From: Escherichia coli
GTDB lineage: Bacteria; Pseudomonadota; Gammaproteobacteria; Enterobacterales; Enterobacteriaceae
NCBI RefSeq assembly: GCF_003790525.1
Contig: NZ_CP033635.1
DNA length: 64,000 bases
Direction: 5' to 3' (one strand)
The notes below the pieces were generated by a model that worked only from the letters and a program-made list of their open reading frames with translations, made no database searches and was not told where the DNA came from. Position numbers and translations under genes: made by a program. Below, piece after piece: positions 17,842-63,159 of the stretch; position 1 is the first letter of the stretch; every line of letters starts with the position of its first letter.

Positions 17842-17885
17842 TGTTCCTCGCAATAAAGCCTGGCACCACACCAGGCTTGTCGTCA

Positions 17886-19163: not shown

Positions 19164-19231
19164 AGTGACCTCGTTTGTAGGATACAAAACGCCGCTCCGG
19201 TGCAAACACCGGAGGGCATTTGTGACAGATG

Positions 19232-20695: not shown

Positions 20696-20708
20696 AACCG
20701 CCTCCTGG

Positions 20709-22076
20709 TTAGTTAATTAACGCGTAGACGTCAGCGATTTTTTCGCGCAACAACGCGGCAAAATCTTCACGTTCGGTTAAATCGCCAAACAGCGCTTTAT
20801 CACTGGCATAAACAGCGACGGGATCGGCAGACTGGAACATTGCATGGACAGCTGGTGCATCAAGGATGCCATCCTGATATTCATAGGGCAGTTTGCCGTG
20901 ATGCCATTGCTCCATGAATACGTAAAACAGTGCAGGTAACATGGCGGTGGCATTCGGGCGAACGCCTCGCTGGTAGCACTCTCGCAGTGTGGGGGCAATC
21001 ATCGCCGGAATTTTCGAGAAACCATCCGCAGCGACGCGTTGGTTGGTGTCCTGAATATGTGGATTGGTAAAACGCTTGAGTACAACATCACGGTAGGTTG
21101 GCAAATCGATACCGTTATCGCCCAAGCAAGGAATGACATCTTCCGTCACGTAGCGGTCGGCAATCTGATAGATAAAATCGGTCATTGTGCTTTCGTGGAT
21201 ATATTTTTGACCGATTAACGTACCTGCCCAGGCGATGCAACTGTGTGAAGAGTTAAGAATGCGAATCTTCGCCTCTTCATAGGGGATTACCGACGCCACC
21301 AGTTCGACACCGACCTTCTCCAGTGCCGGACGGACATCACGGAAATTATCTTCCACGACCCACTGGATAAAGGTTTCGCCCATTACCGGCGCTTTATCGG
21401 CAATACCCGTTTGAGCCTTGATCCGTGCCGGAAGTTCTGCTGCCGGACGAGGCGTAATGCGGTCAACCATGGTATTCGGGCAAGTGGTATTTGTACTCAG
21501 CCAGTCGATGACATCCTGTTTGCCAGTTAGCTGGAGAAACTCAACCAGGCCATCATGGAAACGTTCACCATTATGGCGCACGTTATCGCAATTCAGCAGG
21601 GTTAGTGGTCCGGCGTTATTTGCCATACGTGCTTCGAGGATACGGGTAATAACACCGTAAATTGTTTTGCATCCCCCTTTAAGATCTGCCGCTAAATCAG
21701 GATTGTTAACTTCCAGTTTGTGACTGGTATTCAGGTAGTACCCGCCTTCGGTGACGGTGAAAGCAATCACTTTTGTCTTCGGATCTGCCCCTTCAGCAAT
21801 CAGCGGTTGTAAATCTGCCTGCCACGGTATCAACTTCTGAATTGAGGTGATCTCTTCATATTCGCTTACCCCTTCCGGGCTGACGGTTTCCAGCACATAG
21901 CGACCTTTCTGTGCACTGAGTGCCTGTACGACATGTTCAGCATCATTACGAATATTGCCCGCAGCAATGCTCCAGCGTTTATCGCCCATCACCTGCAAAC
22001 GGTGTAGATACCACGCCTGATGTGCGCGATGAAAAGAACCTAACCCGATGTGCAGCCATGTAAATTGTTCGTTCAT
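20709..22076 (-). CDS. atlD: Mannitol-dehydrogenase-family polyol dehydrogenase, D-arabitol 4-dehydrogenase-like (455 aa)
   Basis: ORF 20709-22121 trimmed to [21 protein letters not shown] (Rossmann N-terminus); the start could instead be 15 codons upstream. Confidence 0.8.
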
Positions 22077-22288
22077 TGTTTCGTTCTCCATTGACGTTAT
22101 GGCTGAACTGTAATCGAACATTTGAGTTAATTAAGAGCGTTAGATCACAAAAGAACAATTGACCAAAAAAATTACAAATGACCAAATCAAAGCAATAAAC
22201 TTGCCTCGCGGTAAAGCTATGGCCAAAATGACGCTAATCAGTTGCGGGATTTTCACGATTCCGCACGCCACTTTTGAGGTAGGGAAAC

Positions 22289-23230
22289 GTGAACAAAGAA
22301 GATGACATCAGGCTCGATCAAAAAGTACGGGCGGCATGGATGTACTACATTGCCGGACTTAATCAGAGTGAAATCGCAAGTCAGTTAGGTACTTCACGGC
22401 CAGTGGTTCAACGCCTGATAGCAGCAGCGAAAGACGAAGGGATTGTGTCGATTGGATTGCATCATCCGGTTGCCAACTGTCTCGATTATGCCCAACTGTT
22501 AAAGGAAAAGTACCAATTAACCGACTGCAATATTATGCCGGTTTACAGTATTGAAAGTACGCTCGACAGCGTGACATTTGGCTGTTATCAACTGATGGCG
22601 CGTTACTTACAGGGTGACAAACCGACCATCGTTGGTATTGGTTCTGGCTTAACGTTGAAGAAAACCATTAAACGTATCGATTTTGATAGTCAGAATACCC
22701 GCTGTGTGGCGCTGATTAGCGCCATGAATGAACACGGGCAATGTAACTATTACGACGACGTACCGCTGCTTTTGGCGAGAAAAATTCAGGGAAAATATTA
22801 CCAGTGGCCAGCTCCACGCTATGCTCAGTCCCGCGAAGAGTACCAAATGTGGTCAACCAATCGATTGTTCCGCAACGTCTCTACCGTAGCGCGTGACTCT
22901 GATGTTATTTTCGTGGGTATTGGTGCTTTAGGTCGTCAAAGCCCTATTTTCAAAGATGGCTTTATTGATGAGCAGCAACTGGAAGAGTTAACAGCACGCG
23001 GAGGCGTTGGTGAAATCCTCGGACGCTTTATTGATGCTGAAGGCAATGTTGTGGAAAGCCAGATCAACCAGATGATCACCAGCCATGATATCCGCGAAAG
23101 CAACTGCCCACGTATCGCAGCTGCCTGTGGTGAGGATAAACGTCCGGCGATCCTCGCAGCATTAAAAGGTGGGTGGATCAACGGTCTGGTCACCGATGAA
23201 CACACCGCACGCTGGTTGCTGACACGTTAA
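22289..23230 (+). CDS. atlR: SorC/DeoR-type sugar-binding transcriptional regulator (313 aa)
   Basis: N-terminal HTH (LNQSEIASQLGTSRPVVQRL) plus sugar-binding domain; divergent from atlDKT. Symbol assigned by adjacency only. Confidence 0.75.
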   Translation: MNKEDDIRLDQKVRAAWMYYIAGLNQSEIASQLGTSRPVVQRLIAAAKDEGIVSIGLHHPVANCLDYAQLLKEKYQLTDCNIMPVYSIESTLDSVTFGCYQLMARYLQGDKPTIVGIGSGLTLKKTIKRIDFDSQNTRCVALISAMNEHGQCNYYDDVPLLLARKIQGKYYQWPAPRYAQSREEYQMWSTNRLFRNVSTVARDSDVIFVGIGALGRQSPIFKDGFIDEQQLEELTARGGVGEILGRFIDAEGNVVESQINQMITSHDIRESNCPRIAAACGEDKRPAILAALKGGWINGLVTDEHTARWLLTR

Positions 23231-23232
23231 TC

Positions 23233-24264
23233 TCAGCTGACAACATTCAGGCTCGGAATGAGTTGTGGCGGTATCTCAATGCGACGCAGGGTGGTATCGC
23301 CAGAATCCACAATTTCAAACACTTTTTCGAGCATGGCGGGTACATCCTGACGAACCATATCGATATCGTGCCCGAGCAGAGAAACAAAAGGATCCCAGTC
23401 AAAACACCCCATTGGCGGTTGATTGGCTCCCGTCTGCCCGGTTTGCGCCAGCCAGCGAACCACCCCTTCAAGAGAGATTGTCGAGTTGACGAATAACCCG
23501 TGAAGCGATACTGCAGAGCTTTGGAAGACCTCTTTCAGTAATCCCTCTACGCGAGCAGAAGAGTAGCCGGTAACCAGTTTATGTTCATCCGGTACGGTTA
23601 TCCCCAAAGCCTGATGGGCATCGACAAAACCACATAAACGTTCAGCAGTATTGTTATCGCTTATACGTCCACCGACAAAAGTCAAAGGTGCCAGCTTGCC
23701 ATAGCGTTTCTGGCTGTTGGCTAAAATTCTTTCCGTCAATAATTTCGCCCCCATATAGTTATCAGAAATGATCGACGGCGCCAGTGTTCCCGGCAGATCC
23801 AGATTCAGTGTCGGTACGCCCGCTTGCTGGCACATTTGGGCTATTTTATCCGGTTGAGTCGCTCCGGTAGCAATGACCCAATCCACCTGCCAGGAGAGCA
23901 TGGCGCGAGCAGCCTCAATTTCCAGTTCTGGCTGTCGCCGCGTACAGGTGATGATTGGCAGTAATCCTCTGGCACGCGCCATCTCTTCAAATTTTTCGGC
24001 AATCGATCCAAAGTATCGGTTGTCATATTTCGGCACAATCATGCCAATAACGTTGGATTTTTTACTGCGCAGTAAACTTGCCTGCCGATTAATGGCATAT
24101 CCCTGCTCTTCCGCAATACGGGTGACCTTCTCAGCCAGCTTTGCGCTGATGCGTCGCTTTTTCCAGTTGCCATTCAAAATAGCGCTTACCGCACTGGCAG
24201 AAACGCCGGTTAATTCTGCCAGGTCGTAAATGGTCGTTTTCTTCGTTTTCTCAACGCGTGTCAC
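23233..24264 (-). CDS. rtlR: LacI-family transcriptional repressor (343 aa)
   Basis: LacI-type HTH (TIYDLAELTGVSASAVS) plus periplasmic-binding-like domain; divergent from rtlDKT. Symbol assigned by adjacency only. Confidence 0.75.
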   Translation of the reverse strand: MTRVEKTKKTTIYDLAELTGVSASAVSAILNGNWKKRRISAKLAEKVTRIAEEQGYAINRQASLLRSKKSNVIGMIVPKYDNRYFGSIAEKFEEMARARGLLPIITCTRRQPELEIEAARAMLSWQVDWVIATGATQPDKIAQMCQQAGVPTLNLDLPGTLAPSIISDNYMGAKLLTERILANSQKRYGKLAPLTFVGGRISDNNTAERLCGFVDAHQALGITVPDEHKLVTGYSSARVEGLLKEVFQSSAVSLHGLFVNSTISLEGVVRWLAQTGQTGANQPPMGCFDWDPFVSLLGHDIDMVRQDVPAMLEKVFEIVDSGDTTLRRIEIPPQLIPSLNVVS

Positions 24265-24422
24265 AAATTTGCCTCTTCATTTTGAATGTCTCTTGCTGAG
24301 AATTTAAGCAAGTGCTAGATCTGCTTCATCGATTGAGCAGTTTGCTTCACACGGCAGCTAAATTCCCGTTCAGTGCGTGCAAGCAAACAGAGACTATAAA
24401 TTCGCCCTGGTAAAAGGATTAT

Positions 24423-25175
24423 ATGATGAATCACTCTGTGCCCTCTATGAATACTCCCCTTAATGGCAAAGTTGCAGCTATCACTGGCGCTGCGTCAGGT
24501 ATTGGCCTGCAATGTGCAAAAACGCTGCTCGATGCAGGAGCAAAGGTAGTATTGATTGACCGGGAAGGCGACAAACTGCACAAGATTGTCGCTGAGTTAG
24601 GCGAAAACGCGTACGCGCTGCAACTCGATCTCTTCAATAATCAGCAAGTCGATAACATGCTGGCGGACATTATCGAACTGGCGGGTGGGCTGGATATTTT
24701 TCATGCCAATGCAGGCGCTTATATTGGCGGCCCAGTGGCTGAAGGTGATCCAGATGTCTGGGATCGTGTGTTAAATCTGAATATAAATGCGGCGTTTCGC
24801 TGTGTCCGTGCAGTCCTGCCGCATATGATTGCGCAGAGGTCGGGCGATATAATTTTTACCAGTTCCATCGCGGGCGTCGTTCCGGTTATCTGGGAACCGA
24901 TCTACACCGCGTCCAAATTTGCCGTTCAGGCATTCGTACACACTACCCGCCGCCAGGTTTCTCAATATGGCGTGCGTGTGGGTGCGGTGCTGCCAGGACC
25001 AGTAGTCACTGCCCTGCTTGATGACTGGCCAAAAGCCAAAATGGAAGAAGCCCTGGCAAATGGTAGCCTGATGCAACCGATTGAAGTGGCGGAATCAGTA
25101 TTGTTTATGGTGACCCGCTCGAAAAATGTCACCGTGCGAGATTTAGTGATCCTGCCTGGCAGTGTCGATCTGTAA
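24423..25175 (+). CDS. rtlD: Short-chain dehydrogenase/reductase, ribitol 2-dehydrogenase-like (about 249 aa)
   Basis: SDR motifs TGAASGIG and YTASK; the start may be the second ATG at 24426. Confidence 0.85.
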
Positions 25176-25185
25176 GGGCGCAATC

Positions 25186-26790
25186 ATGACAATAACCAAA
25201 ACCGTTATTGGTGTTGATGTGGGATCAGGCAGTGTCCGCGCCGGGATTTTTGATCTCAACGGATCTCTGCTATCCCATGCCACAGAAAAAATCACGACTA
25301 CGCGGCGCAGCGGAAGCCGCGTGGAACAGTCCAGCCAGGAGATCTGGCAGGCGGTCTGTTCATGTATTCGTAATGCGCTCACTCTGGCAGACGTTTGTGC
25401 ACAAAGTGTGGCAGGCATCGGTTTTGATGCCACCTGTTCTCTGGTGGTACTGGATAAAAACGGTGATCCATTGCCTGTCAGCCCGGAAGGAGATGCAAAG
25501 CAAAATATCATTGTGTGGATGGATCACCGCGCCACCGAACAAGCAGAGCGAATCAATGCCACTCACCATCCGGTGCTGAACTACGTCGGTGGTAAAATTT
25601 CGCCTGAAATGGAAACACCGAAAATTCTCTGGCTGAAAGAAAATATGCCAGAGATCTACGAACGTGCCGGACAATTTTTCGATCTGGCCGATTTTCTGAC
25701 CTGGCGGGCTACCGGTGATTTAGCGCGTTCAGTATGCACTGTTACCTGTAAATGGACGTGGCTGGCACATGAAAATCGCTGGGATCCAGATTATTTCCGC
25801 ACCATTGGCCTTGCAGAGTTAGCGGATGAAGATTTTATTCGCATTGGTCATCATATTGTTTCTCCCGGAACACCTTGTGGAAATGGTTTAACAGCACAAG
25901 CCGCGGCAGAGATGGGATTACTCCCCGGCACACCTGTCGCTGTAGGGTTAATTGATGCTCACGCTGGTGGCATCGGTACGGTTGGCGTAGAAGGTGGAGC
26001 GCTGAACAATCTCGCGTATGTTTTCGGCACTTCTTCATGCACCATGGCATCTACCACTTCTCCCTCGTTTGTACCGGGTGTCTGGGGGCCGTATTACAGT
26101 GCGATGGTTCCAGGTCTGTGGTTAGTTGAAGGCGGGCAAAGTGCTGCGGGAGCAGCTATTGACCAGCTACTTGATTTCCATCCGGCTGTTGAAGAAGCTC
26201 GCGAAATGGCACAACGTGTGAATCAGCCCCTCCCCGTCTGGCTTGCTGATCGAATCCTCGAAAAAACGGCGCAACCATCAGATGCTGTCGCCCTGGCGAA
26301 AGGGCTACACGTGGTGCCGGAATTTCTCGGAAATCGCGCCCCCTTCGCAGATCCTCATGCCAGAGCGGTAATTTGTGGCCTGGGTATGGAGCGAGATCTG
26401 GATAATTTACTCGCCTTGTATATCGCTGGATTATGCGGAATTGGTTATGGTCTGCGCCAAATTCTCGACGCTCAAACAGCGCAGGGAGTAGTGAGTAAAA
26501 ATATCGTTATTAGCGGCGGTGCCGGGCAGCATCCACTGGTACGACAAATTCTGGCAGATACCTGCGGTATTCCGGTCATTACCACGCAATGCTGCGAACC
26601 GGTTTTATTAGGCTCGGCCATTCTTGGTGCTGTCGCCGGAAATATTGCACCTTCTGTTGGCGAAGCGATGCAACAATTCACCCATGTGGATAAATATTAT
26701 TATCCGCAAGAACGCTATCAATCTCTTCATCATCGTCGATATGAGGCCTATAAGCAGTTGCAGCATACTGCAAAATTACTCAGAGACTAA
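25186..26790 (+). CDS. rtlK: FGGY-family kinase, D-ribulokinase-like (534 aa)
   Basis: ORF 25162-26790 trimmed to ATG at 25186 (MTITKTVIGVDVGSGSVRAG...), 10 bp after the rtlD stop. Confidence 0.85.
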   Translation: MTITKTVIGVDVGSGSVRAGIFDLNGSLLSHATEKITTTRRSGSRVEQSSQEIWQAVCSCIRNALTLADVCAQSVAGIGFDATCSLVVLDKNGDPLPVSPEGDAKQNIIVWMDHRATEQAERINATHHPVLNYVGGKISPEMETPKILWLKENMPEIYERAGQFFDLADFLTWRATGDLARSVCTVTCKWTWLAHENRWDPDYFRTIGLAELADEDFIRIGHHIVSPGTPCGNGLTAQAAAEMGLLPGTPVAVGLIDAHAGGIGTVGVEGGALNNLAYVFGTSSCTMASTTSPSFVPGVWGPYYSAMVPGLWLVEGGQSAAGAAIDQLLDFHPAVEEAREMAQRVNQPLPVWLADRILEKTAQPSDAVALAKGLHVVPEFLGNRAPFADPHARAVICGLGMERDLDNLLALYIAGLCGIGYGLRQILDAQTAQGVVSKNIVISGGAGQHPLVRQILADTCGIPVITTQCCEPVLLGSAILGAVAGNIAPSVGEAMQQFTHVDKYYYPQERYQSLHHRRYEAYKQLQHTAKLLRD

Positions 26791-26891
26791 TTAACCAGCC
26801 GCCTGACGCTGTTTTCAGGCAATCACTAATAACGACTCACTCCGGTAATATCCCGGAGTGCATTCATCTGCACCCTAAAAACGAGGTTTAT

Positions 26892-28166
26892 ATGTCCAGA
26901 AATAATAAACAGTGGTTGGGTTTGCCACTGCATCTGATATGGGGATATATCGCCATCGCAGTATTTATGACTGGTGATGGTTTCGAACTCGCATTCTTAT
27001 CGCACTATATTAAATCGTTAGGCTTCACACCTGCGGAAGCCTCTTTTGCCTTTACGCTCTACGGCCTGGCGGCTGCCCTTTCCGCCTGGGTTTCTGGGGT
27101 AGTAGCGGAAATCATCACGCCGCAAAAAACCATGCTGATTGGTTTTGTCCTATGGTGCGTATTCCATGTTCTGTTTCTGGTCTTTGGATTAGGACAGGCA
27201 AACTATGGGTTAATCCTGCTGTTTTACGGGATTCGTGGTTTAGCGTATCCGCTATTTCTCTACTCATTTATCGTCGTTATTATTCATAACGTGCGTAGCG
27301 AAAATTCCAGTTCTGCTCTGGGTTGGTACTGGGCGGTATATTCAGTAGGGATCGGTGTTGCTGGCAGTTATATTCCCAGTTTTACGATACCGATTATGGG
27401 TGAAATGGGAACCTTATGGCTGGCACTGGCGTTCTGCTTTGCTGGCGGTGTCATTGCCATGATCTCCTTGCGTCATGTTAAAACGCCTGGACATATGCAT
27501 AATTTAACTCCCCGTGAGAAGTTTGCAGAATTAAGTCGGGCAGTAACTTTACTTTATACCAACCGCAATATTTTTCTCTCCAGTATTGTGCGCATTATAA
27601 ATACCTTATCGTTATTCGGTTTTGCGGTCATTATGCCAATGATGTTTGTGGATGAACTGGGATTCACCACCTCTGAATGGTTGCAGGTCTGGGCGGCATT
27701 TTTCTTTACCACTATTTTCTCTAATATTTTTTGGGGGATTGTGGCAGAAAAAATGGGCTGGATGCGTGTTATTCGCTGGTTTGGTTGCCTCGGGATGGCA
27801 GCATCAAGTTTAGCGTTTTACTACATGCCGCAATACTTTGGTCACAACTACTGGATGGCAATGATTCCGGCGATTGCTCTGGGAACTTTTGTTGCTGCAT
27901 TTGTGCCGATGGCCGCTGTCTTCCCGGCACTGGAACCAAAACACAAAGGTGCTGCAATCTCGGTTTACAACCTCTCTGCGGGTATGTCTAACTTCCTGGC
28001 TCCGGCAATTGCCGTGGTGTTATTACCGTGGTTTAGCACTATCGGTGTGGTCATTGCCTATACAGCATTGTATCTATTGGCCTTTGTCCTTTGCGCATTC
28101 ATTCGCGTTGAGCAGCCAGGATTCAGTTCTGCGCCAGTGACTGAGAAGGCATTGAATATCTCCTGA
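26892..28166 (+). CDS. rtlT: MFS pentitol transporter, ribitol operon (424 aa)
   Basis: Paralog of atlT (MSRNNKQWLGLPLHLIWGYIAIAVF...). Confidence 0.85.
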   Translation: MSRNNKQWLGLPLHLIWGYIAIAVFMTGDGFELAFLSHYIKSLGFTPAEASFAFTLYGLAAALSAWVSGVVAEIITPQKTMLIGFVLWCVFHVLFLVFGLGQANYGLILLFYGIRGLAYPLFLYSFIVVIIHNVRSENSSSALGWYWAVYSVGIGVAGSYIPSFTIPIMGEMGTLWLALAFCFAGGVIAMISLRHVKTPGHMHNLTPREKFAELSRAVTLLYTNRNIFLSSIVRIINTLSLFGFAVIMPMMFVDELGFTTSEWLQVWAAFFFTTIFSNIFWGIVAEKMGWMRVIRWFGCLGMAASSLAFYYMPQYFGHNYWMAMIPAIALGTFVAAFVPMAAVFPALEPKHKGAAISVYNLSAGMSNFLAPAIAVVLLPWFSTIGVVIAYTALYLLAFVLCAFIRVEQPGFSSAPVTEKALNIS

Positions 28167-28187
28167 AAAACGAAACGCATCAGGCAC

Positions 28188-28215
28188 TCATCCTCTCCCT
28201 CATGGGAGAGGATGA
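28188..28215. terminator. Perfect 12-bp stem / 4-nt loop hairpin between convergent rtlT and fbaB
   Basis: TCATCCTCTCCC-TCAT-GGGAGAGGATGA followed by TTT on the plus strand. Confidence 0.5.
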
Positions 28216-28222
28216 TTTCACA

Positions 28223-47054: not shown

Positions 47055-47086
47055 AAGGCGCTGCATCGACAGCGCCTTTTCTTTAT
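47055..47086 (+). terminator. Intrinsic terminator of metG
   Basis: AAGGCGCTG-CATCGA-CAGCGCCTT followed by TTTCTTTAT. Confidence 0.75.
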
Positions 47087-48715
47087 AAATTCCTAAAGTT
47101 GTTTTCTTGCGATTTTGTCTCTCTCTAACCCGCATAAATACTGGTAGCATCTGCATTCAACTGGATAAAATTACAGGGATGCAGAATGAGACACTTTATC
47201 TATCAGGACGAAAAATCACATAAATTCAGGGCAGTTGAGCAACAGGGAAACGAGTTGCATATCAGTTGGGGAAAAGTTGGCACCAAAGGGCAAAGCCAGA
47301 TAAAAAGTTTTTCAGATGCTGCGGCAGCGGCAAAAGCGGAGCTTAAGCTGATTGCGGAGAAGGTGAAGAAGGGGTATGTGGAGCAAGCGAAGGATAATTC
47401 TTTGCAACCTTCCCAAACGGTAACGGGCTCTCTCAAGGTAGCGGACTTATCCACCATTATTCAGGAACAACCCTCTTTCGTAGCAGAAACCCGTGCGCCT
47501 GACAAAAATACAGATGCTGTTTTACCGTGGCTGGCGAAAGATATTGCTGTCGTTTTTCCGCCCGAAGTTGTACACACCACGTTAAGTCATCGCCGCTTTC
47601 CCGGAGTTCCTGTTCAGCAAGCAGACAAATTGCCCCAATTACGTCGCTTAGCCTGTAGTGTGTCGCAACGGGATAATAAAACAGCCACATTTGACTTCAG
47701 CGCCTGTTCTTTAGAATGGCAAAACACCGTCGCCCAGGCGATCAGTCAGATCGACGGCCTGAAAACAACACAGTTACCATCACCAGTAATGGCTGTACTC
47801 ACGGCACTTGAAATGAAATGCACAAGATATAAAGTGCGTGAGGATGTTATGGATCAGATCGTCCAGGAAGGCGGTCTGGAATATGCTACTGATGTAATAA
47901 TACACCTTCAACAGATTGATATTGAATGGGATTATGCGAATAATGTCATTATTATTCTGCCGTCTGGCATTGCACCTAGCTACTTGGAGCAATATTCCAG
48001 ATTTGAATGACGCCTACGTAAACATTTATCACTGACGGAAGAGTCTCTCTGGCAAAAATGTGCACAAAAACTTATTGCCGCAATTCCACATATTCCAGAA
48101 TGGCGGCAACCATTAATTGCTTTGTTATTACCCGAAAAACCAGAAATTGCACATGAAATTGCCCAGCGTCTACTGGGGCAAAAAAAATTACCCTCGCTTG
48201 AGTGGTTAAAAATAGTGGCGACTGATGAGCACATTCTTGCCTCATTAGAAAAATATCACGAACCATATGCCATTTTTGATGATTACTATTGTGGTGCGAT
48301 ATGGTCAGCCACCGTATTACAGGAGCAAGGTGTTGCAGCCCTGCCCCGATTTGCTCCCTATGCCGCAAGTGACTACTGCGCCGATGTGTTGCGTCATATC
48401 AATCATCCGTTCGCATTGACACTGCTTATACGTGTAGCCGGGCAAACTAAACGCTGTCACGATCGGATGACGAAAGCCATTGCTGCGTTCCCACATGCAG
48501 CAATGGCGGCACTGACGGAACTTCTTGGGCAAAAAGAAGAGAACAGTTGGCGCATTATGCTAATGACAATGCTTATCTCACAACCAGCACTGGCAGAACA
48601 GGTCATTCCCTGGCTCTCGACACCCGCAGTTGCCGTACTGAAATCATGCCAGCAACAACTGACACAGCCCTCAAACCATGCCAGCGCCGATCTACTGCCA
48701 GCCGTAGTAGTCTCC

Positions 48716-50054
48716 CATAAGCGCTAACTTAAGGGTTGTGGTATTACGCCTGATATGATTTAACGTGCCGATGAATTACTCTCACGATAACTGGTCAGCA
48801 ATTCTGGCCCATATTGGTAAGCCCGAAGAACTGGATACTTCGGCACGTAATGCCGGGGCTCTAACCCGCCGCCGCGAAATTCGTGATGCTGCAACTCTGC
48901 TACGTCTGGGGCTGGCTTACGGCCCCGGGGGGATGTCATTACGTGAAGTCACTGCATGGGCTCAGCTCCATGACGTTGCAACATTATCTGACGTGGCTCT
49001 CCTGAAGCGGCTGCGGAATGCCGCCGACTGGTTTGGCATACTTGCCGCACAAACACTTGCTGTACGCGCCGCAGTTACGGGTTGTACAAGCGGAAAGAGA
49101 TTGCGTCTTGTCGATGGAACAGCAATCAGTGCGCCCGGGGGCGGCAGCGCTGAATGGCGACTACATATGGGATATGATCCTCATACCTGTCAGTTCACTG
49201 ATTTTGAGCTAACCGACAGCAGAGACGCTGAACGGCTGGACCGATTTGCGCAAACGGCAGACGAGATACGCATTGCTGACCGGGGATTCGGTTCGCGTCC
49301 CGAATGTATCCGCTCACTTGCTTTTGGAGAAGCTGATTATATCGTCCGGGTTCACTGGCGAGGATTGCGCTGGTTAACTGCAGAAGGAATGCGCTTTGAC
49401 ATGATGGGTTTTCTGCGCGGGCTGGATTGCGGTAAGAACGGTGAAACCACTGTAATGATAGGCAATTCAGGTAATAAAAAAGCCGGAGCTCCCTTTCCGG
49501 CACGTCTCATTGCCGTATCACTTCCTCCCGAAAAAGCATTAATCAGTAAAACCCGACTGCTCAGCGAGAATCGTCGAAAAGGACGAGTAGTTCAGGCGGA
49601 AACGCTGGAAGCAGCGGGCCATGTGCTATTGCTAACATCATTACCGGAAGATGAATATTCAGCAGAGCAAGTGGCTGATTGTTACCGTCTGCGATGGCAA
49701 ATTGAACTGGCTTTTAAGCGGCTCAAAAGTTTGCTGCACCTGGATGCTTTGCGTGCAAAGGAACCTGAACTCGCGAAAGCGTGGATATTTGCTAATCTAC
49801 TCGCCGCATTTTTAATTGACGACATAATCCAGCCATCGCTGGATTTCCCCCCCAGAAGTGCCGGATCCGAAAAGAAGAACTAACTCGTTGTGGAGAATAA
49901 CAAAAATGGTCATCTGGAGCTTACAGGTGGCCATTCGTGGGACAGTATCCCTGACAGCCTACAAAACGCAATTGAAGAACGCGAGGCATCGTCTTAACGA
50001 GGCACCGAGGCGTCGCATTCTTCAGATGGTTCAACCCTTAAGTTAGCGCTTATG
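48716..50054 (+). mobile_element. IS186 (IS4 family), about 1339 bp, with perfect 23-bp terminal inverted repeats and 10-bp target-site duplication
   Basis: Left end CATAAGCGCTAACTTAAGGGTTG (48716-48738), right end CAACCCTTAAGTTAGCGCTTATG (50032-50054); direct repeats AGTAGTCTCC at 48706-48715 and 50055-50064. Confidence 0.9.
48771..49883 (+). CDS. IS186 transposase (DDE, IS4 family; about 370 aa)
   Basis: MNYSHDNWSAILAHIGKPEELDTSARNAGALTRRREIRDAATLLRLGLAYGPGG..., the IS186 transposase as remembered; the ORF track starts two codons earlier at GTG 48765. Confidence 0.85.
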   Translation: MNYSHDNWSAILAHIGKPEELDTSARNAGALTRRREIRDAATLLRLGLAYGPGGMSLREVTAWAQLHDVATLSDVALLKRLRNAADWFGILAAQTLAVRAAVTGCTSGKRLRLVDGTAISAPGGGSAEWRLHMGYDPHTCQFTDFELTDSRDAERLDRFAQTADEIRIADRGFGSRPECIRSLAFGEADYIVRVHWRGLRWLTAEGMRFDMMGFLRGLDCGKNGETTVMIGNSGNKKAGAPFPARLIAVSLPPEKALISKTRLLSENRRKGRVVQAETLEAAGHVLLLTSLPEDEYSAEQVADCYRLRWQIELAFKRLKSLLHLDALRAKEPELAKAWIFANLLAAFLIDDIIQPSLDFPPRSAGSEKKN

Positions 50055-52338
50055 AGTAGTCTCCCCTCCCTGGCTTTCGAAAAAGAAAAAATCGCCGATT
50101 CCGGTGCTGGATTTAGCGCCATTAGGCATTGAGCCAATCTGTTATCTGACAGAAGAAATCAGTAATCAACTTTTGGCGAAATATATCTGGTATTCAAAAC
50201 ACATCACGGTTAGCCATGAAGAAAGTACTACCAACCTGTTGGCAAGGATGGGTTTTCAACGACGGATCGCTGGTACATATATTAAAGCTCCCGAAGCGGT
50301 AGTTGAGGCATGGCTAAATGAAGATTATTCAACCTTACTAAGTGAATTTAAGGTGTTTCATTCACCTACCGGGCATTATTGGCAGTTGGGGATTTTGACA
50401 ACATTGCCGCTGGAGAAAGCAGTAAAAGCATGGAATGCCCTTACCCTATCTCCACATACCGATACCGAATACTCCATGTTACATTTTGGACTCAAAGGGT
50501 TACCTGGGTTAGTAAACTCACTTGCACGCTATCCACAAGAAGCCTTGCCCATCACGAATTACTTCGCAGCGAGTGAGCTGGCTCCTGCCGTCGCCCGTGC
50601 CTTCAACAAACTGAAAACGCTACGCGAAAACGCCCGTAGCTGGCTGTTGAAATACCCGGAACATGCCCTTACCGGCCTGCTGCCTGCGGCGCTCGGCAAA
50701 GCCGGTGAAGCACAGGATAACGCCCGCGCTGCCTTGCGTATGCTTACCGAAAACGGTCATCAGCCATTACTGCAAGAAATCGCCCGACGTTATAACCAGC
50801 CGGAAGTAACCGATGCGGTGAACGCTCTGCTTGCGCTCGATCCCTTAGATAATCACCCGACAAAAATCCCCACTCTTCCGGCCTTTTATCAGCCATCGCT
50901 CTGGACGCGCCCGGTATTAAAAGCAAATGCCCAATCACTGCCAGATAGCGCCCTCCTCCACCTCGGTGAAATGCTCCGCTTCCCTCAGGAAGAGGCTCTG
51001 TATCCGGGATTATTGCAGGTGAAAGACGTCTGTTCCGCCGACTCACTGGCGGGATTTGCCTGGGATCTGTTTACCGCCTGGCAGACCGCTGGCGCGCCGT
51101 CGAAAGAGAGTTGGGCGTTCACTGCGTTAGGCGTTCTCGGTAACGATGACACCGCCCGCAAACTGACGCCATTAATACGCGCCTGGCCTGGTGAATCCCA
51201 GCATAAACGCGCCACCGTTGGGTTGGATATTCTCGCTGCTATCGGTAGTGATATCGCCCTTATGCAGCTTAACGGCATCGCCCAGAAACTGAAATTCAAA
51301 GCATTACAGGAGCGGGCAAAAGAAAAAATTGCCGACATTGCCGAGAGCCGCGAACTCACGGTGGCGGAGCTTGAAGATCGGTTAGCACCGGATCTCGGTC
51401 TGGATGATAACGGTTCGCTGCTGCTGGATTTTGGCCCACGGCAGTTCACCGTCAGCTTTGATGAAACCTTAAAACCGTTTGTGCGTGATGTTTCCGGCAG
51501 CCGCCTGAAAGACCTGCCCAAACCGAACAAAAGCGATGATGAAACGCGGGCGAACGATGCGGTTAACCGCTACAAATTGCTGAAAAAAGATGCGCGTACC
51601 ATCGCCGCCCAGCAGGTAGCAAGGCTGGAATCCGCCATGTGCCTGCGCCGCCGCTGGTCGCTGGAAAACTTCCAGCTCTTCCTGGTTGAGCATCCGCTGG
51701 TTCGTCACTTAACCCGCCGTCTGATTTGGGGCGTTTATAGCGCCGAAAACCAGCTACTGGCTTGCTTTCGCGTAGCAGAAGATAACAGCTCCAGCACCGC
51801 TGACGATGATCTTTTCACCCTGCCGGAAGGCGATATCTCTATCGGCACTCCTCACGTTCTGGAAATATCACCAACGGATGCTGCCGCCTTTGGTCAGCTT
51901 TTTGCCGACTACGAACTGCTACCACCGTTCCGCCAGCTCGACCGTAACAGCTACGCCCTGACAGAAGCCGAGCGCAATGCCAGTGAACTGACCCGCTGGG
52001 CAGGCAGAAAATGCCCGAGTGGTCGGGTCATGGGGCTGGCGAATAAAGGCTGGATAAAGGGCGAACCACAGGATGGAGGCTGGATCGGATGGATGATCAA
52101 ACCTTTGGGTCGCTGGTCGTTAATCATGGAAATCGATGAAGGCTTTGCGGTAGGCATGTCGCCAGCCGAACTCAGCGCTGAGCAGCTCTTAAGCAAGCTG
52201 TGGCTATGGGAAGGCAAAGCAGAAAGATATGGCTGGGGGAGTAATTCAACACAGGAAGCGCAGTTCTCCGTAATCGATGCCATCACCGCCAGCGAGCTAA
52301 TTAACGATATTGAAGCCCTGTTTGAATAAGGAAAGAGC

Positions 52339-55300
52339 ATGGACAAGGAATTACCGTGGCTGGCGGATAACGCCCAACTGGAACTGAAATATAAAAAAGG
52401 CAAAACGCCGCTCAGTCATCGTCGCTGGCCGGGCGAACCAGTGTCCGTTATCACTGGAAGTCTCATCCAGACATTGGGTGATGAATTGCTACAAAAAGCT
52501 GAGAAGAAAAAAAACATTGTCTGGCGTTATGAGAATTTTTCACTGGAGTGGCAGTCCGCCATCACGCAGGCCATCAACTTGATCGGCGAACACAAACCCT
52601 CAATCCCGGCCCGGACAATGGCGGCGCTAGCCTGTATCGCGCAAAATGACAGCCAACAGTTGCTCGACGAAATCGTCCAACAAGAGGGGCTGGAATATGC
52701 GACTGAGGTGGTGATTGCACGCCAGTTTATTGCGCGGTGTTATGAGAGTGATCCTCTGGTAGTGACATTGCAGTATCAGGACGAGGATTATGGCTATGGT
52801 TATCGCTCAGAAACCTATAACGAATTCGATCTCCGACTGCGTAAGCATCTCTCTCTGGCAGAGGAAAGCTGCTGGCAGCGTTGCGCCGACAAACTCATTG
52901 CCGCACTACCAGGAATAACCAAAGTTCGCCGCCCTTTTATTGCGCTGATCCTCCCGGAAAAACCAGAAATAGCCAATGAGTTGGTAGGCCTTGAATGCCC
53001 GCGAACTCATTTTCATTCTAAGGAGTGGTTAAAAGTTGTTGCTAATGACCCCACAGCGGTGAGAAAACTCGAACACTACTGGAGCCAGGATATATTTAGC
53101 GATCGAGAAGCCAGCTACATGTCGCATGAAAACCACTTCGGCTACGCGGCCTGCGCCGCCCTTTTGCGCGAACAAGGACTGGCAGCCATTCCGCGCCTCG
53201 CGATGTATGCCCATAAAGAAGATTGCGGCAGTCTGCTGGTACAAATTAACCATCCGCAAGTCATCCGCACCTTGCTACTGGTGGCTGATAAAAACAAACC
53301 CAGCCTGCAACGTGTAGCTAAATACCATAAAAACTTCCCCCATGCGACGCTCGCCGCACTGGCAGAACTGCTGGCGTTAACAGAACCACCAGCCCGCCCT
53401 GGTTATCCAATCATCGAAGACAAAAAGCTGCCTGCACAGCAAAAAGCACGCGATGAATACTGGCGTACGCTGTTACAAACGCTGATGGCATCGCAGCCAC
53501 AACTGGCAGCAGAAGTGATGCCGTGGTTAAGTACTCAACCCCAGTCAGTGCTGAAGAGTTATTTATCGGCACCGCCCAAACCGGTTATTGATGGCACCGA
53601 TAACAGCAATCTGCCAGAAATCCTCGTTTCACCACCGTGGCGTAGTAAGAAAAAAATGACAGCTCCACGTCTTGATTTGGCACCGCTCGAATTAACTCCG
53701 CAAGTTTACTGGCAACCAGGCGAACAAGAGAGGCTTGCCGCCACTGAGCCTGCCCGTTATTTCAGCACGGAATCTCTTGCGCAACGCATGGAACAAAAAA
53801 GTGGACGAGTTGTATTACAGGAACTGGGTTTTGGGGATGATGTATGGCTGTTTCTGAATTATATACTCCCCGGAAAACTGGATGCTGCACGCAATTCACT
53901 CTTGTTCAGTGGCATTACTACCAGGGGCGGGTTGAAGAGATCCTGAATGGCTGGAACTCCCCGGAAGCACAATTAGCAGAACAGGCGCTCCGCAGCGGTC
54001 ACATAGAAGCGTTAATTAACATATGGGAAAATGACAACTACTCACATTATCGTCCGGAAAAGAGTGTCTGGAACCTGTATTTATTGGCACAGTTGCCGCG
54101 TGAGATGGCTTTGACCTTCTGGCTGCGTATCAATGAGAAAAAGCATCTGTTCGCGGGTGAGGACTATTTTCTCAGTATCCTCGGATTGGATGCGCTACCA
54201 GGTCTGCTGTTGGCTTTTTCACATCGTCCAAAAGAAACATTTCCGTTAATTTTAAATTTTGGCGCAACAGAACTGGCGCTGCCTGTTGCCCACGTCTGGC
54301 GACGTTTCGCGGCGCAGCGTGATCTGGCTCGCCAGTGGATTTTACAATGGCCGGAACATACGGCTAGTGCACTTATCCCTCTTGTCTTTACCAAACCCAG
54401 CGATAATAGCGAAGCCGCATTACTTGCCCTGCGTTTACTGTACGAACAGGGACATGGCGAATTGCTACAAACCGTGGCAAACCGCTGGCAGCGTACAGAT
54501 GTATGGTCTGCCCTGGAGCAGTTGCTTAAACAGGGTCCAATGGACATTTACCCGGCACGCATTCCAAAAGCCCCTGATTTCTGGCATCCGCAAATGTGGT
54601 CCAGGCCGCGCCTTATCACTAATAATCAAACTGTTACCAATGACGCTCTGGAAATTATCGGCGAAATGCTGCGCTTTACCCAGGGGGGACGTTTTTATAG
54701 CGGGCTGGAACAACTGAAAACGTTCTGCCAGCCACAAACGCTGGCAGCTTTTGCCTGGGATCTCTTCACTGCGTGGCAACAAGCTGGTGCCCCCGCAAAA
54801 GACAACTGGGCATTTCTGGCGTTAAGTCTCTTTGGTGACGAAAGCACGGCACGGGATCTGACGACACAGATCCTCGCCTGGCCACAAGAAGGCAAATCTG
54901 CCCGTGCTGTCAGCGGCCTGAACATCCTTACCCTGATGAATAATGATATGGCGCTGATACAGCTGCATCATATATCGCAACGGGCTAAATCCCGCCCCTT
55001 ACGTGATAACGCGGCGGAATTTCTTCAGGTGGTCGCAGAAAATCGCGGGCTAAGCCAGGAAGAGCTAGCGGACAGATTAGTCCCAACCCTGGGCCTTGAT
55101 GATCCGCAGGCGTTGAGTTTTGATTTTGGTCCCCGGCAGTTTACCGTTCGCTTCGATGAAAATCTCAACCCGGTTATCTTTGATCAGCAAAACGTTCGCC
55201 AGAAAAGCGTTCCCCGTTTGCGCGCCGATGACGATCAACTGAAAGCGCCCGAGGCACTGGCCCGACTAAAAGGGCTAAAAAAAGATGCTACTCAGGTGAG

Positions 55301-55970
55301 CAAAAACCTGCTCCCGCGTCTTGAAACGGCCCTACGTACCACCCGACGCTGGTCGCTGGCAGATTTTCATTCTCTGTTTGTTAATCATCCCTTTACCCGT
55401 CTGGTTACCCAGCGATTAATATGGGGGGTTTATCCGGCAAATGAACCGCGTTGTTTACTCAAAGCCTTTCGTGTGGCCGCAGAGGGGGAGTTCTGCAATG
55501 CGCAAGATGAGCCAATTGACCTGCCTGCGGACGCTCTGATTGGCATTGCCCACCCGTTAGAAATGACAGCAGAAATGCGCAGTGAATTTGCACAGCTTTT
55601 TGCCGATTACGAAATTATGCCGCCTTTTCGCCAGTTGTCGCGCCGCACGGTGCTGCTCACACCTGACGAGTCAACCAGTAACAGCCTGACTCGCTGGGAA
55701 GGTAAATCCGCTACCGTTGGGCAACTTATGGGAATGCGATACAAAGGCTGGGAGTCAGGCTATGAGGACGCATTTGTCTATAACCTGGGTGAGTACCGGC
55801 TGGTCCTTAAGTTTTCACCCGGTTTTAACCACTACAATGTTGATAGCAAAGCGCTAATGAGCTTCCGTTCTCTTCGAGTGTACCGTGACAATAAATCCGT
55901 CACTTTTGCCGAACTTGATGTGTTTGATTTGAGTGAGGCGTTAAGCGCACCTGACGTCATTTTCCATTAA
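52339..55970 (+). pseudogene. yehI: yehI-like DUF4132 large protein gene with an apparent -1 frameshift inside 53844-53946
   Basis: Two overlapping ORFs (52339-53946 in frame 1, 53844-55970 in frame 0); total span 3632 nt is one nt short of an intact 1210-codon gene; both halves are colinear with the molR paralog. Confidence 0.7.
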
Positions 55971-56348: not shown

Positions 56349-56516
56349 TATACTCTAAATAATTCAAATTGGTCCGATCCGGCGCAACGTCCCAATGGCC
56401 TGGATTATAAATCTCATTATCTTAATTGCAACGGGGTCCAGCCGTGGTTATAATTCGTTCGTTGGAACACGATGTTGCACAGGCTGTGGTGTTAGGCCTG
56501 AAAATAGTAAATAAAA

Positions 56517-56546
56517 GAACCTGCCTCACCAGCAGGTTTTTTTATT
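56517..56546 (+). terminator. Intrinsic terminator downstream of yehK
   Basis: CCTGC-CTCACCA-GCAGG followed by TTTTTTT. Confidence 0.75.
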
Positions 56547-60033: not shown

Positions 60034-61162
60034 ACTGAACGATCTTCTGACCACCCGTGAGCTACAACGCTGGCGATTAATTCTTGGCGAAGCGGCAGAA
60101 ACGACGCTTTGTGGGCTGGATGACAACGCCCGGCAGATAGACCACGCGCTGGAGTGGCTGTATGGGCGCGATCCTGAACGGCTCCAGCGTGGTGAACGTT
60201 CCGGTGGATTAGGTGGCTCAAATCTCACCACCCCTGAGTGGATCAACAGTATTCACACGCTGTTTCCGCAGCAGGTGATTGAGCGGCTGGAAAGCGATGC
60301 CGTGCTGCGCTACGGCATTGAAGATGTGGTGACGAATCTCGACGTGCTGGAACGTATGCAGCCTTCTGAAAGCCTGCTACGCGCTGTTTTGCACACCAAA
60401 CATCTGATGAACCCCGAAGTACTGGCTGCCGCCCGCCGGATAGTGTGCCAGGTTGTTGAAGAAATTATGGCTCGACTGGCAAAGGAAGTTCGTCAGGCTT
60501 TTTCTGGTGTCCGCGATCGCCGTCGCCGTTCATTTATTCCACTGGCGCGAAACTTTGATTTCAAAAGTACTCTGCGCGCCAACCTGCAACACTGGCACCC
60601 GCAACACGGCAAGTTGTATATCGAATCCCCCCGCTTTAACAGCCGCATTAAACGCCAAAGCGAACAATGGCAACTGGTCTTACTGGTTGATCAAAGCGGA
60701 TCGATGGTTGACTCGGTGATCCACTCTGCGGTGATGGCGGCCTGTTTATGGCAGTTACCCGGCATTCGTACCCATCTGGTGGCGTTTGACACCAGCGTCG
60801 TTGATCTCACGGCAGACGTTGCTGATCCGGTAGAGTTATTAATGAAAGTACAACTGGGCGGCGGGACCAATATCGCCAGTGCCGTGGAGTATGGTCGGCA
60901 ACTTATTGAACAACCAGCAAAAAGCGTCATTATCCTCGTGAGCGATTTCTATGAAGGGGGTTCATCATCATTGCTGACGCATCAGGTGAAAAAGTGTGTC
61001 CAGAGCGGCGTCAAAGTGCTGGGACTGGCGGCGCTCGATAGCACCGCAACACCTTGCTATGACCGCGATATGGCCCAGGCGCTGGTTAATGTCGGCGCAC
61101 AAATAGCTGCCATGACACCGGGCGAACTGGCGGCCTGGCTTGCGGAGAATCTTCAGTCATGA
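60026..61162 (+). CDS. yehP: vWA-domain protein YehP (378 aa)
   Basis: ORF 59891-61162 trimmed to ATG at 60026 (MSELNDLLTT...), overlapping the yehM stop by 8 nt; MIDAS motif LVDQSGSM. Confidence 0.85.
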   Translation: MSELNDLLTTRELQRWRLILGEAAETTLCGLDDNARQIDHALEWLYGRDPERLQRGERSGGLGGSNLTTPEWINSIHTLFPQQVIERLESDAVLRYGIEDVVTNLDVLERMQPSESLLRAVLHTKHLMNPEVLAAARRIVCQVVEEIMARLAKEVRQAFSGVRDRRRRSFIPLARNFDFKSTLRANLQHWHPQHGKLYIESPRFNSRIKRQSEQWQLVLLVDQSGSMVDSVIHSAVMAACLWQLPGIRTHLVAFDTSVVDLTADVADPVELLMKVQLGGGTNIASAVEYGRQLIEQPAKSVIILVSDFYEGGSSSLLTHQVKKCVQSGVKVLGLAALDSTATPCYDRDMAQALVNVGAQIAAMTPGELAAWLAENLQS

Positions 61163-63159
61163 ATTCACTACGTCCGGAATTATTAGAACTGACGCCGCAG
61201 GCCCTGACGGCGTTAAGCAATGCCGGTTTTGTTAAACGCAGTCTTAAGGAACTGGAAAATGGCAACGTCCCGGAAATCAGCCATAAGAACGGCGCTTTAA
61301 TCGCCACCTTCAGTGACGGTGTCCGTACCCAGCTGGCGAACGGTCAGGCACTGAAAGAGGCTCAATGCAGCTGCGGGGCCAACGGTATGTGCCGTCATCG
61401 CGTGATGCTGGTGTTAAGTTATCAACGACTTTGTGCCACCACTCAGTCTACGGAAAAAGAAGAAGAGTGGGATCCGGCAATCTGGCTGGAAGAACTGGCT
61501 ACCCTTCCCGATGCTACCCGCAAACGCGCACAGGCGCTGGTCGCTAAAGGCATCACCATTGAGTTGTTCTGTGCGCCGGGTGAAATTCCCTCTGCCCGCT
61601 TACCGATGAGCGATGTGCGTTTTTATTCCCGCAGCAGTATTCGTTTCGCCCGTTGTGATTGTATTGAAGGCACACTTTGCGAACATGTCGTACTGGCGGT
61701 ACAGGCCTTCGTCGAGGCCAAAGCGCAGCAAGTAGAATTTAACCATTTAATCTGGCAGATGCGCAGCGAACACGTCACATCATCTGACGATCCGTTTGCC
61801 AGCGAAGAAGGCAACGCGTGTCGTCAATATGTTCAGCAATTAAGCCAGACATTATGGCTTGGCGGCATCAGCCAGCCGCTCATCCATTACGAGGCAGCAT
61901 TCAACCGCGCATTGCAGGCGGCAGAGACCTGCAACTGGCGCTGGGTGAGTGAATCGCTACGGCAACTGCGCGCCAGCGTTGATGCCTTCCACGCCCGCGC
62001 CAGCCACTATAATGCCGGAGAATGCTTACATCAGCTTGCGGCATTAAACAGTCGATTAAATTGCGCACAAGAGATGGCCCGGCGCGACAGTATTGGTGAA
62101 GTTCCTCCTGTGCCGTGGCGCACGGTCGTTGGCTCTGGCATTGCCGGAGAAGCAAAGCTTGATCATCTGCGGCTGGTGTCTTTAGGTATGCGTTGCTGGC
62201 AGGATATTGAGCATTATGGTTTACGCATCTGGTTTACCGATCCCGACACCGGCAGTATTTTGCACCTTTCGCGCAGTTGGCCGCGAAGTGAACAGGAAAA
62301 CTCACCGGCAGCTACGCGTCGGCTGTTTAGTTTTCAGGCTGGCGCACTGGCGGGCGGGCAAATTGTTTCACAAGCAGCAAAACGCAGTGCCGATGGCGAG
62401 CTGCTGTTAGCTACCCGCAACCGCTTAAGCAGCGTTGTGCCGCTGTCGCCTGATGCCTGGCAAATGTTGAGCGCGCCGTTACGCCAGCCGGGCATTGTGG
62501 CTTTGCGGGAATATTTACGCCAGCGTCCCCCCGCCTGCATACGGCCTCTTAATCAGGTCGATAACTTATTTATTCTGCCGGTCGCTGAGTGTATTTCGCT
62601 CGGTTGGGACAGCAGCCGCCAGACGCTGGATGCGCAGGTCATTAGCGGCGAAGGGGAAGATAATGTGCTGACGTTATCATTACCAGCCTCAGCCAGCGCA
62701 CCTTATGCCGTTGAACGCATGGCGGCGCTTTTGCAACAAACAGACGACCCCGTGTGTCTGGTTTCTGGCTTTGTCAGTTTTGTTGAAGGGCAATTGACAC
62801 TGGAACCACGGGTGATGATGACAAAAACCCGTGCCTGGGCGCTGGACGCAGAAACTACGCCTGTGGCACCGCTACCTTCTGCCAGCGTTTTGCCTGTGCC
62901 GTCTACTGCTCATCAGTTGCTGATACGCTGCCAGGCGTTACTTATTCAACTGCTCCATAACGGCTGGCACTATCAGGAACAGAGTGCTATTGGTCAGGCA
63001 GAGTTGCTGGCGAATGACCTCACCGCGGTGGGTTTTTATCGGCTGGCACATGTGTTGGGACAATTTCGTAATACAGAAAGCGAGGCACGGGTAGAAGCAA
63101 TGAATAACGGTGTTTTGCTTTGCGAACAATTATTCCCCATGCTTCAGCAACAAGGATGA
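61159..63159 (+). CDS. yehQ: SWIM zinc-finger-like protein YehQ (666-aa ORF)
   Basis: Start overlaps the yehP stop (ATGA); two CxC...CxH motifs (CSCGANGMCRHRV and CDCIEGTLCEHVV) typical of SWIM fingers. Confidence 0.8.
   Translation: MNSLRPELLELTPQALTALSNAGFVKRSLKELENGNVPEISHKNGALIATFSDGVRTQLANGQALKEAQCSCGANGMCRHRVMLVLSYQRLCATTQSTEKEEEWDPAIWLEELATLPDATRKRAQALVAKGITIELFCAPGEIPSARLPMSDVRFYSRSSIRFARCDCIEGTLCEHVVLAVQAFVEAKAQQVEFNHLIWQMRSEHVTSSDDPFASEEGNACRQYVQQLSQTLWLGGISQPLIHYEAAFNRALQAAETCNWRWVSESLRQLRASVDAFHARASHYNAGECLHQLAALNSRLNCAQEMARRDSIGEVPPVPWRTVVGSGIAGEAKLDHLRLVSLGMRCWQDIEHYGLRIWFTDPDTGSILHLSRSWPRSEQENSPAATRRLFSFQAGALAGGQIVSQAAKRSADGELLLATRNRLSSVVPLSPDAWQMLSAPLRQPGIVALREYLRQRPPACIRPLNQVDNLFILPVAECISLGWDSSRQTLDAQVISGEGEDNVLTLSLPASASAPYAVERMAALLQQTDDPVCLVSGFVSFVEGQLTLEPRVMMTKTRAWALDAETTPVAPLPSASVLPVPSTAHQLLIRCQALLIQLLHNGWHYQEQSAIGQAELLANDLTAVGFYRLAHVLGQFRNTESEARVEAMNNGVLLCEQLFPMLQQQG

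Follow-up and report, generated by a model that had tools for sequence, protein, structure and literature searches.

IS186 and the molR locus of Escherichia coli

IS186, an element of the IS4 family that is present in E. coli K-12 as the copies IS186A, IS186B and IS186C (designated IS421 in the NCBI annotation), inserts in both orientations into targets of the form GGGG(N6/N7)CCCC (Lee et al. 2016, PMC5009759). Only 7 of the 59 IS186 sites examined in that study deviated from the motif by 1-2 bases, and independent insertions into a single site, in either orientation, have been documented experimentally (PMC3045373; PMC5009759). The molR gene of K-12 is a pseudogene, annotated as yehF (b2115) and yehH (b4499) and formerly as molR_1, molR_2 and molR_3. 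Its name (molybdate regulator) was inherited from annotation, the literature adding the word 'presumably' (PMC3950696), and the gene has been listed as under LexA control, its SOS box being known (PMC6590174). Here we describe the molR locus in a 64,000-nucleotide stretch of E. coli DNA (contig NZ_CP033635.1; hereafter the window), where it is almost certain that molR became a pseudogene through two successive and unrelated events, first an in-frame TGA and then the insertion of IS186.

Identity and surroundings of the interrupted gene

An earlier note on this DNA had described the segment at 47186-52329 as an inactivated molR paralog. The gene is instead molR itself, equivalent to yehF plus yehH in the current K-12 annotation, and it lies between metG and yehI in the order metG-yehF/yehH-yehI; yehI is its paralog, the two proteins sharing 37% identity over 1184 aa. 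When rebuilt, MolR comprises 1264 codons and carries two Pfam domains, an N-terminal WGR domain (PF05406, residues 6-69, E = 1.6e-15) and a C-terminal DUF4132 domain (PF13569, residues 988-1173, E = 9.7e-50). Searches of NCBIfam and Pfam found no DNA-binding regulator domain in MolR, the only NCBIfam match covering the WGR part and falling far under the cutoff of its model. Function queries with MolR, YehI and YehLMPQ returned a WGR-domain protein (2ra8) as the sole find in the PDB sequence search and families of unknown function in PHROGs, while PADLOC matched none of these six proteins; a literature search on molR, yehI, DUF4132 and MoxR/vWA/SWIM/WGR yielded no functional study. Intact MolR of 1262-1264 aa is very common in E. 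coli, where it forms clusters with thousands of members, one representative of which (P0001) differs from the rebuilt protein at 6 residues. The exact intact 1264-aa protein with Leu at residue 275 occurs in 50 public contigs (cluster representative P0122), and the gene is also intact in strain XYEH3934. Measured against this still-existing intact ortholog, the disabling lesions in the window mark its molR as a pseudogene.

Upstream, the metG ORF ends at 47045 and is followed by a terminator-like hairpin (47055..47078, plus strand), recognized by a consensus scan, that would separate metG from the molR promoter region. Just 5' of the molR start codon lies the sequence AACTGGATAAAATTACAGGG (47159..47178, plus strand), which fits the pattern CTG-N10-CAG. 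This sequence probably represents the LexA (SOS) box described for molR, a placement at these coordinates that we infer; the LexA-box pattern is unspecific, with 59 matches in the window. A promoter consensus scan returned no more sites than were found in shuffled sequence.

A widespread nonsense mutation at codon 275

The first molR fragment, codons 1-274 plus TGA (47186..48010, plus strand), encodes the WGR domain and is equivalent to K-12 yehF. It ends at an in-frame TGA at codon 275 (48008..48010, plus strand; G for T at 48009), and the second fragment, codons 276-510 (48011..48715, plus strand), continues in the same frame. The earlier note had described these two ORF pieces as one frame parted by a single TGA, with YSRFE*RLRKHLSL aligned to YehI YNEFDLRLRKHLSL, and both observations hold. 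The ancestral state of codon 275 is TTA, for Leu, which is also the residue aligned with it in YehI. Codon 275 is polymorphic among 5,426 complete genomes, with TGA in 710 and TTA in 3,244, and the exact 274-aa YehF product was found in at least 1000 public contigs. The TGA, which is the yehF stop of K-12, is not specific to this strain. In the course of events that we propose, the TTA-to-TGA change would have arisen on a K-12-type molR haplotype and then spread widely, leaving a 274-aa, WGR-only product, YehF. Alleles of this K-12 type are present in distant serotypes, e.g. O145:H28.

In E. coli, UGA followed by C terminates translation weakly. The base after the codon-275 TGA is C, and some read-through may thus occur in strains that carry the TGA alone. 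This raises the question of whether the TGA was a true inactivation at all, or whether molR persisted as a split or leaky gene, with YehF having a role of its own or the UGA-C being read through, such that IS186 delivered the first real knockout. The commonness of the TGA allele is compatible with such a gene, as are the listing of yehF as protein-coding by the K-12 curators, the intact promoter and SOS-box-like site, and the remainder of the frame in the window and in strain 720632, which is untouched and identical to an intact allele. However, the TGA haplotype has gathered further independent lesions, as would be expected after inactivation: the extra G of K-12, IS186 in both orientations, a frameshift in strain E1441, and IS1 or IS3 insertions. 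We consider a leaky or split gene unlikely and retain the reading in which the TGA came first as an inactivating change.

Insertion of IS186 at the codon 510/511 boundary

The second lesion is a complete IS186 of 1339 bp (48716..50054, plus strand) that is identical at 1339/1339 nt to IS186A of MG1655. As the earlier note had stated, the element is bounded by perfect 23-bp inverted repeats (CATAAGCGCTAACTTAAGGGTTG; 48716-48738 and 50032-50054, 100% complementary) and flanked by direct repeats of AGTAGTCTCC (48706..48715 and 50055..50064). It carries an intact insL (48771..49883, plus strand; position taken from the MG1655 insL1 annotation), which encodes the 370-aa IS4-family transposase without internal stop codons and scores 133.2 bits with NCBIfam NF033592, whose cutoff is 115. 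The duplication is 10 bp long, or 11 nt if one counts the next C, which could belong to either the element or the target, and so lies within the 10-12 bp typical of IS186. The third molR fragment, codons 511-1264 plus stop and including DUF4132, follows at 50065..52329 (plus strand).

Removal of the element and one repeat (48716-50064) restores a 3795-nt frame whose sole internal stop is at codon 275, and across the junction VVVSPPWLSKKK aligns with YehI ILVSPPWRSKKK, both as the earlier note had proposed. Because the excised sequence is identical at 3795/3795 positions to that of strain 720632, in which the locus is uninterrupted, the flanking repeats represent duplicated target. The empty site in 720632, together with the 100% match to IS186A, speaks against the two other readings of the structure, namely that the repeats are not a target duplication or that the element is not IS186. 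Compared with K-12, the excised locus matches at 3795/3796 positions, K-12 having one extra G. The structural reading (two lesions, element and duplication) is confirmed, with no evidence found that contradicts it.

Insertion sequences are a classic source of misassembly, and an exact match to the window was found in 0 genomes of the complete-genome collection, which could suggest that the assembler misplaced an IS186 copy in molR. Such an artefact is extremely improbable in view of the exact 10-bp duplication and perfect inverted repeats, the 13 complete genomes that contain the identical junction, and a draft assembly made independently (GCA_037022815.1) with the element in the same orientation and a single SNP in 6.6 kb.

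As we picture the event itself, IS186, mobilized by its DDE transposase InsL, would have transposed into the codon 510/511 boundary after the TGA was in place, with filling-in of a staggered target cut generating the 10-bp duplication AGTAGTCTCC. Past codon 510 the molR frame enters the element and reads His-Lys-Arg-stop (48716-48727), the upstream frame thus terminating after three IS-encoded codons. The insertion also cuts the DUF4132 part off from its promoter and start codon. From the combined lesions we infer a complete loss of MolR function. Transcription reaching yehI is probably lowered as well, as a presumed polar effect; the literature offered nothing usable on an outward promoter in IS186.

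Age and recurrence of the insertion

Among the 5,426 complete genomes, IS186 occupies exactly this molR nucleotide in only 13, and the site is empty in at least 4,247. The TGA is far more widespread than the insertion, which shows that the TGA came first and the insertion later. The earlier note had further judged the insertion to be fairly recent on the grounds of its intact duplication and perfect inverted repeats. Recency stands, but these features do not establish it, since the old IS186A of K-12 has both; a stronger argument comes from the nearest relatives, in which an identical site is empty, those with 99.8-99.9% identity across 25 kb being without IS186 in molR.

The allele combining TGA and IS186 is present in 116 public contigs, in both orientations. 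More broadly, two molR haplotypes that differ at 8 sites within the 5' 1.5 kb are each found with IS186 at this site in either orientation, so that all four combinations exist. The occurrence of both orientations and both haplotypes indicates that the site was hit more than once. One could instead envision a single ancestral insertion that spread by homologous recombination, given that E. coli recombines, that the K-12-type allele occurs in distant serotypes, and that all carriers share the same duplication and have almost identical IS copies. Recombination cannot flip an element in place, however, and same-site IS186 hits in either orientation are known to arise independently (PMC3045373, PMC5009759), which makes a single origin very unlikely. 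Repeated transposition into the same nucleotide remains our preferred account.

A recurrent target two bases off the motif

The recurrence at molR is the more curious for the sequence of its target. Written as GT/AGTAGTCTCC/CC, with slashes at the ends of the duplication, the right half (CC/CC) is an exact fit to GGGG(N6)CCCC, whereas the left half (GTAG) deviates at two positions. The target, GTAG(TAGTCT)CCCC, is thus not a canonical GGGG(N6/N7)CCCC site centred on the duplication. By comparison, six of six other natural IS186 sites inspected have 0-1 mismatch, and the other copies inspected take the form gg/GG-N6-CC/cc with duplications of 10-11 bp. No perfect GGGG(N6/N7)CCCC site is present in the window, and N6 sites equal in quality to the molR target number 163 in the window alone; hence the repeated hits at molR are not accounted for by the motif alone. 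It is tempting to speculate, although we hold this only as a tentative and rather doubtful possibility, that the codon 510/511 boundary acts in nature as a recurring hot spot for IS186, two bases off the accepted target. Target choice by IS186 would then require more than the 8-base palindrome, e.g. a longer C-rich right half (CTCCCCTCCC) or local DNA structure. With the same reserve, the repeated hits and the IS1, IS3, nonsense and frameshift lesions in molR, yehI and yehL might mean that loss of an SOS-induced WGR/DUF4132-MoxR-VWA system is under selection. The molR site may be useful as a naturally occurring example on which to test IS186 recognition beyond GGGG(N6/7)CCCC.

Decay of the molR-yehI-yehL cluster

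The lesions at molR do not stand alone. In the window, yehI (52339..55970, plus strand), 9 bp downstream of molR, has lost 1 bp (TTT to TT at ~53899-53901) and is thereby divided into ORFs of 535 and 708 aa; frameshifts or stops in yehI occur in the window, XYEH3934 and 720632. A second molR nonsense mutation is present in strain 214-4, and strain E1441 combines its molR frameshift on the TGA haplotype with yehL::IS186. IS1 or IS3 insertions interrupt molR in strains that match the window at 100% identity in the molR sequence on either side of the element, among which at least the O145:H28 group (RM12761) carries the TGA. These many independent lesions in molR, yehI and yehL mark the SOS-linked cluster as dispensable in many lineages.

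Their number, together with the LexA regulation of molR (PMC6590174), might be taken to mean that a costly SOS-induced system is being lost adaptively and not through neutral decay. Yet intact MolR remains very common in the species, the PADLOC defence models are without a match, and weak purifying selection explains the pattern equally well, so we attach little probability to adaptive loss. The decay of molR in the window is ordinary gene decay, and the reuse of the same nucleotide by IS186 in unrelated strains is its only curiosity. The significance is accordingly small: one more decayed copy of a K-12 pseudogene and one more IS186 insertion.

Comparison with known systems

The molR copy of IS186 shares its inverted repeats and 370-aa InsL with IS186A/B/C of K-12, and its 10-bp duplication is matched in length by that of IS186A (GGATCACTCC); location is the only difference, as K-12 has no IS186 copy in molR. 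The gene itself closely parallels the K-12 molR pseudogene, with which it has in common the placement between metG and yehI, the codon-275 TGA and, over the 5' 4 kb, 100% identity. The two differ in the second lesion, which in K-12 is the yehH frameshift caused by the extra G at 2199319, a base that the window lacks, and in the window is IS186. YehI (b2118) resembles MolR in its C-terminal DUF4132 but lacks the N-terminal extension of ~109 aa that carries WGR, and in the window it was disabled by a lesion of another kind, the 1-bp deletion. Finally, the molR site behaves like the described IS186 hot spots in the lon promoter, fimA and menC, in that the same nucleotide is reused, both orientations occur and the duplication is centred on the motif; it departs from their GGGG(N6/N7)CCCC target by two mismatches in one half.

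Identity and context of the disrupted gene

The gene at window 47186-52329, broken by an in-frame TGA at codon 275 and by an IS186 insertion, was called a 'molR paralog' in the earlier note; it is in fact molR itself, and molR is a paralog of yehI. The gene is flanked by metG on one side and yehI on the other, in a window collinear with MG1655 2149-2212 kb (98.9-100% identity), and in K-12 the gene is represented by yehF (b2115, 274 aa) and the pseudogene yehH (b4499), previously named molR_1/2/3. Rebuilt in silico by removal of IS186 and one target repeat, the MolR protein is 1264 aa long and carries WGR (residues 6-69) and DUF4132 (residues 988-1173) domains. YehI is 37% identical to it across 1184 aa, and the residues previously quoted against YehI align as stated. 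A sequence search of solved structures matched a WGR domain only, and PADLOC returned zero matches for MolR, YehI, and YehLMPQ. The name 'molybdate regulator' is a historical label. The gene has been described as LexA-regulated (PMC6590174) and as activated by BglJ-RcsB (PMC3950696), and a CTG-N10-CAG can be read at 47161-47176 (20-mer 47159-47178), directly 5' of the start codon. In E. coli CE10, a third DUF4132 paralog (positions 1-2690 of its comparison locus) stands immediately upstream of an intact molR, in the position occupied by metG in other strains.

The window has several other notable features, most of them departures from K-12. Approximately 11 kb of pentitol genes (17114-28222), encoding the D-arabinitol dehydrogenase DalD, xylulokinase, a pentulose kinase, and RbtT/DalT transporters, stand in place of the K-12 galactitol (gat) operon; 314 of 5,426 complete genomes share this block. 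The SIB antitoxin RNA (1071-1877; Rfam RF00113) is present in three tandem copies vs two (sibA, sibB) in K-12, and the K-12 cryptic prophage remnant PR-X (~600 bp; ogrK, yegZ), 3' of cyaR, is absent at about 15308-15333. An OrzO-P type I antitoxin RNA (RF02083, 99.9 bits) lies between yehK and yehL at 56468-56543. Of the 36 window-vs-K-12 substitutions 3' of the IS, 28 fall within ~660 bp at the yehP/yehQ boundary (60709-61371), a cluster that looks like a recombination patch. The yehQ ORF (61159-63159) encodes 666 aa vs 614 aa in K-12, where the stop region differs (T at 2210942, G at window 63001); the K-12 form appears to be truncated.

An old nonsense allele at codon 275

Both the ORF listing and direct reading place the molR ATG ORF at 47186-48010 with its terminal TGA at 48008-48010, and the frame continues open past this codon as far as 48715, as expected from the two same-frame pieces noticed at the outset. 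The alternative allele is TTA (Leu), and the YehI residue aligned with the stop is also Leu. Alleles were counted with 55-mer queries carrying the variable base centrally, such that only the matching allele could seed: among 5,426 complete E. coli genomes, 710 carry TGA, spanning K-12 derivatives, O145:H28, O6:H16, and others, and 3,244 carry TTA. The exact 274-aa product occurs in at least 1000 public contigs, and an intact 1264-aa protein differing from rebuilt MolR solely by Leu275 is found in 50. The allele counts and the intact Leu275 protein show the TGA to be an old, widespread nonsense polymorphism that arose in a single step.

A rare IS186 insertion

A repeat search recovered one 23-nt pair of perfect inverted repeats, CATAAGCGCTAACTTAAGGGTTG, at 48716-48738 and 50032-50054, and a direct repeat pair at 48706-48716 and 50055-50065. 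The unambiguous duplication is 10 nt, AGTAGTCTCC; an extra C is assignable to element or target. The ORF inside the inverted repeats encodes an IS4-family transposase (133.2 bits vs an NCBIfam cutoff of 115), and the element with its inverted repeats matches IS186A of MG1655 at 1339/1339 bp, which settles its identity. In-silico removal of 48716-50064 restores the continuous frame proposed earlier, 3795 nt with codon 275 as its sole internal stop. This frame matches E. coli strain 720632, in which the locus is uninterrupted, at 3795/3795 positions; the sole difference from MG1655 is an additional G in K-12. The repeats on either side of the element thus represent duplicated single-copy target, and the refuting outcome named in the earlier note did not arise.

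The target is empty in at least 4,247 of the 5,426 complete genomes, and junction queries found IS186 at the exact molR nucleotide in only 13 (5 oriented as in the window, 8 opposite). Relatives 99.8-99.9% identical across 25 kb are without IS186 in molR, and the combination of TGA with IS186 in the window (forward) orientation was found in 0 complete genomes. The draft assembly GCA_037022815.1 shows exactly the window arrangement and differs by a single SNP across 6.6 kb, and a 201-aa junction ORF ending AVVVSHKR, which marks TGA plus IS186 at the molR site, occurs in 116 contigs. Judged by these distributions, the insertion is the younger lesion, the TGA being widespread and the IS186 rare. 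The earlier dating of the insertion as fairly recent thus stands, but not its argument from a perfect duplication and inverted repeats, since the resident K-12 IS186A copy has both.

Consequences and lesions across the cluster

Beyond codon 510, the frame reads His-Lys-Arg-stop within the left inverted repeat, and the DUF4132 part (50065-52329) is severed from the molR promoter and start codon. The insertion is probably also polar on yehI, because yehI starts 9 bp 3' of the molR stop. yehI itself (52339-55970) carries a 1-bp deletion vs MG1655 (TTT to TT at about 53899-53901) that breaks it into two ORFs (535 and 708 aa), leaving neither paralog intact in the window strain; lying in a short T run, however, this deletion may be a sequencing error.

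Elsewhere, strain 214-4 carries a second nonsense mutation in molR, K-12 molR has a frameshift, IS1 and IS3 insertions occur in molR across strains, yehI is likewise found with stops or frameshifts, and yehL with IS186. Intact MolR is still very common. Many independent lesions alongside common intact MolR look like weak constraint, although the lesions may instead reflect adaptive loss. The window molR is an ordinary pseudogene with an ordinary IS, and the original reading of a doubly inactivated gene holds, refined as to the gene's identity, the age of the TGA, the grounds for recency, and the repeated use of the insertion site.

Recurrent use of the target site

The same 10-bp duplication is present in every carrier. 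The 5' 1.5 kb of molR exists as two haplotypes differing at 8 sites, the TGA among them, and IS186 is seen in both orientations on both: on the TGA haplotype, forward in the window and GCA_037022815.1 and reverse in ETEC1703 and three draft contigs; on the TTA haplotype, forward in O9:H10, O121, and VL40 and reverse in G1/2. As recombination is unable to flip an IS in place, the minimum is two insertions, and three or four are probable. In VL40 (positions 4601-5939 of its locus), gatD lies to the right of the IS186 and the matching duplication is absent, a layout that indicates rearrangement between two IS186 copies.

Lee et al. 2016 (PMC5009759) describe an IS186 target of GGGG(N6/N7)CCCC, with single sites used repeatedly and in both orientations, and of their 59 sites only 7 had one or two mismatches; the same behavior is given for the lon promoter (PMC3045373). 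Six other natural IS186 sites inspected here had 0-1 mismatch. The ETEC isolate L4_E1441 carries IS186 within yehL, which encodes a MoxR ATPase (positions 16637-17995 of its locus), at a one-mismatch target, GGGG(CATCTA)CCAC, that is present and empty in the window at 55636-55649. The window alone contains 163 two-mismatch N6 sites and no perfect ones, and the 8-base motif is therefore insufficient to account for recurrence. The explanation lies either in additional features of the site or in the mere persistence of insertions in a dispensable gene. Repeated use of a degenerate target is a minor curiosity. The molR site resembles known IS186 targets in its repeated use and in both orientations, and is unusual with respect to the motif only in its degeneracy, GTAG(TAGTCT)CCCC.
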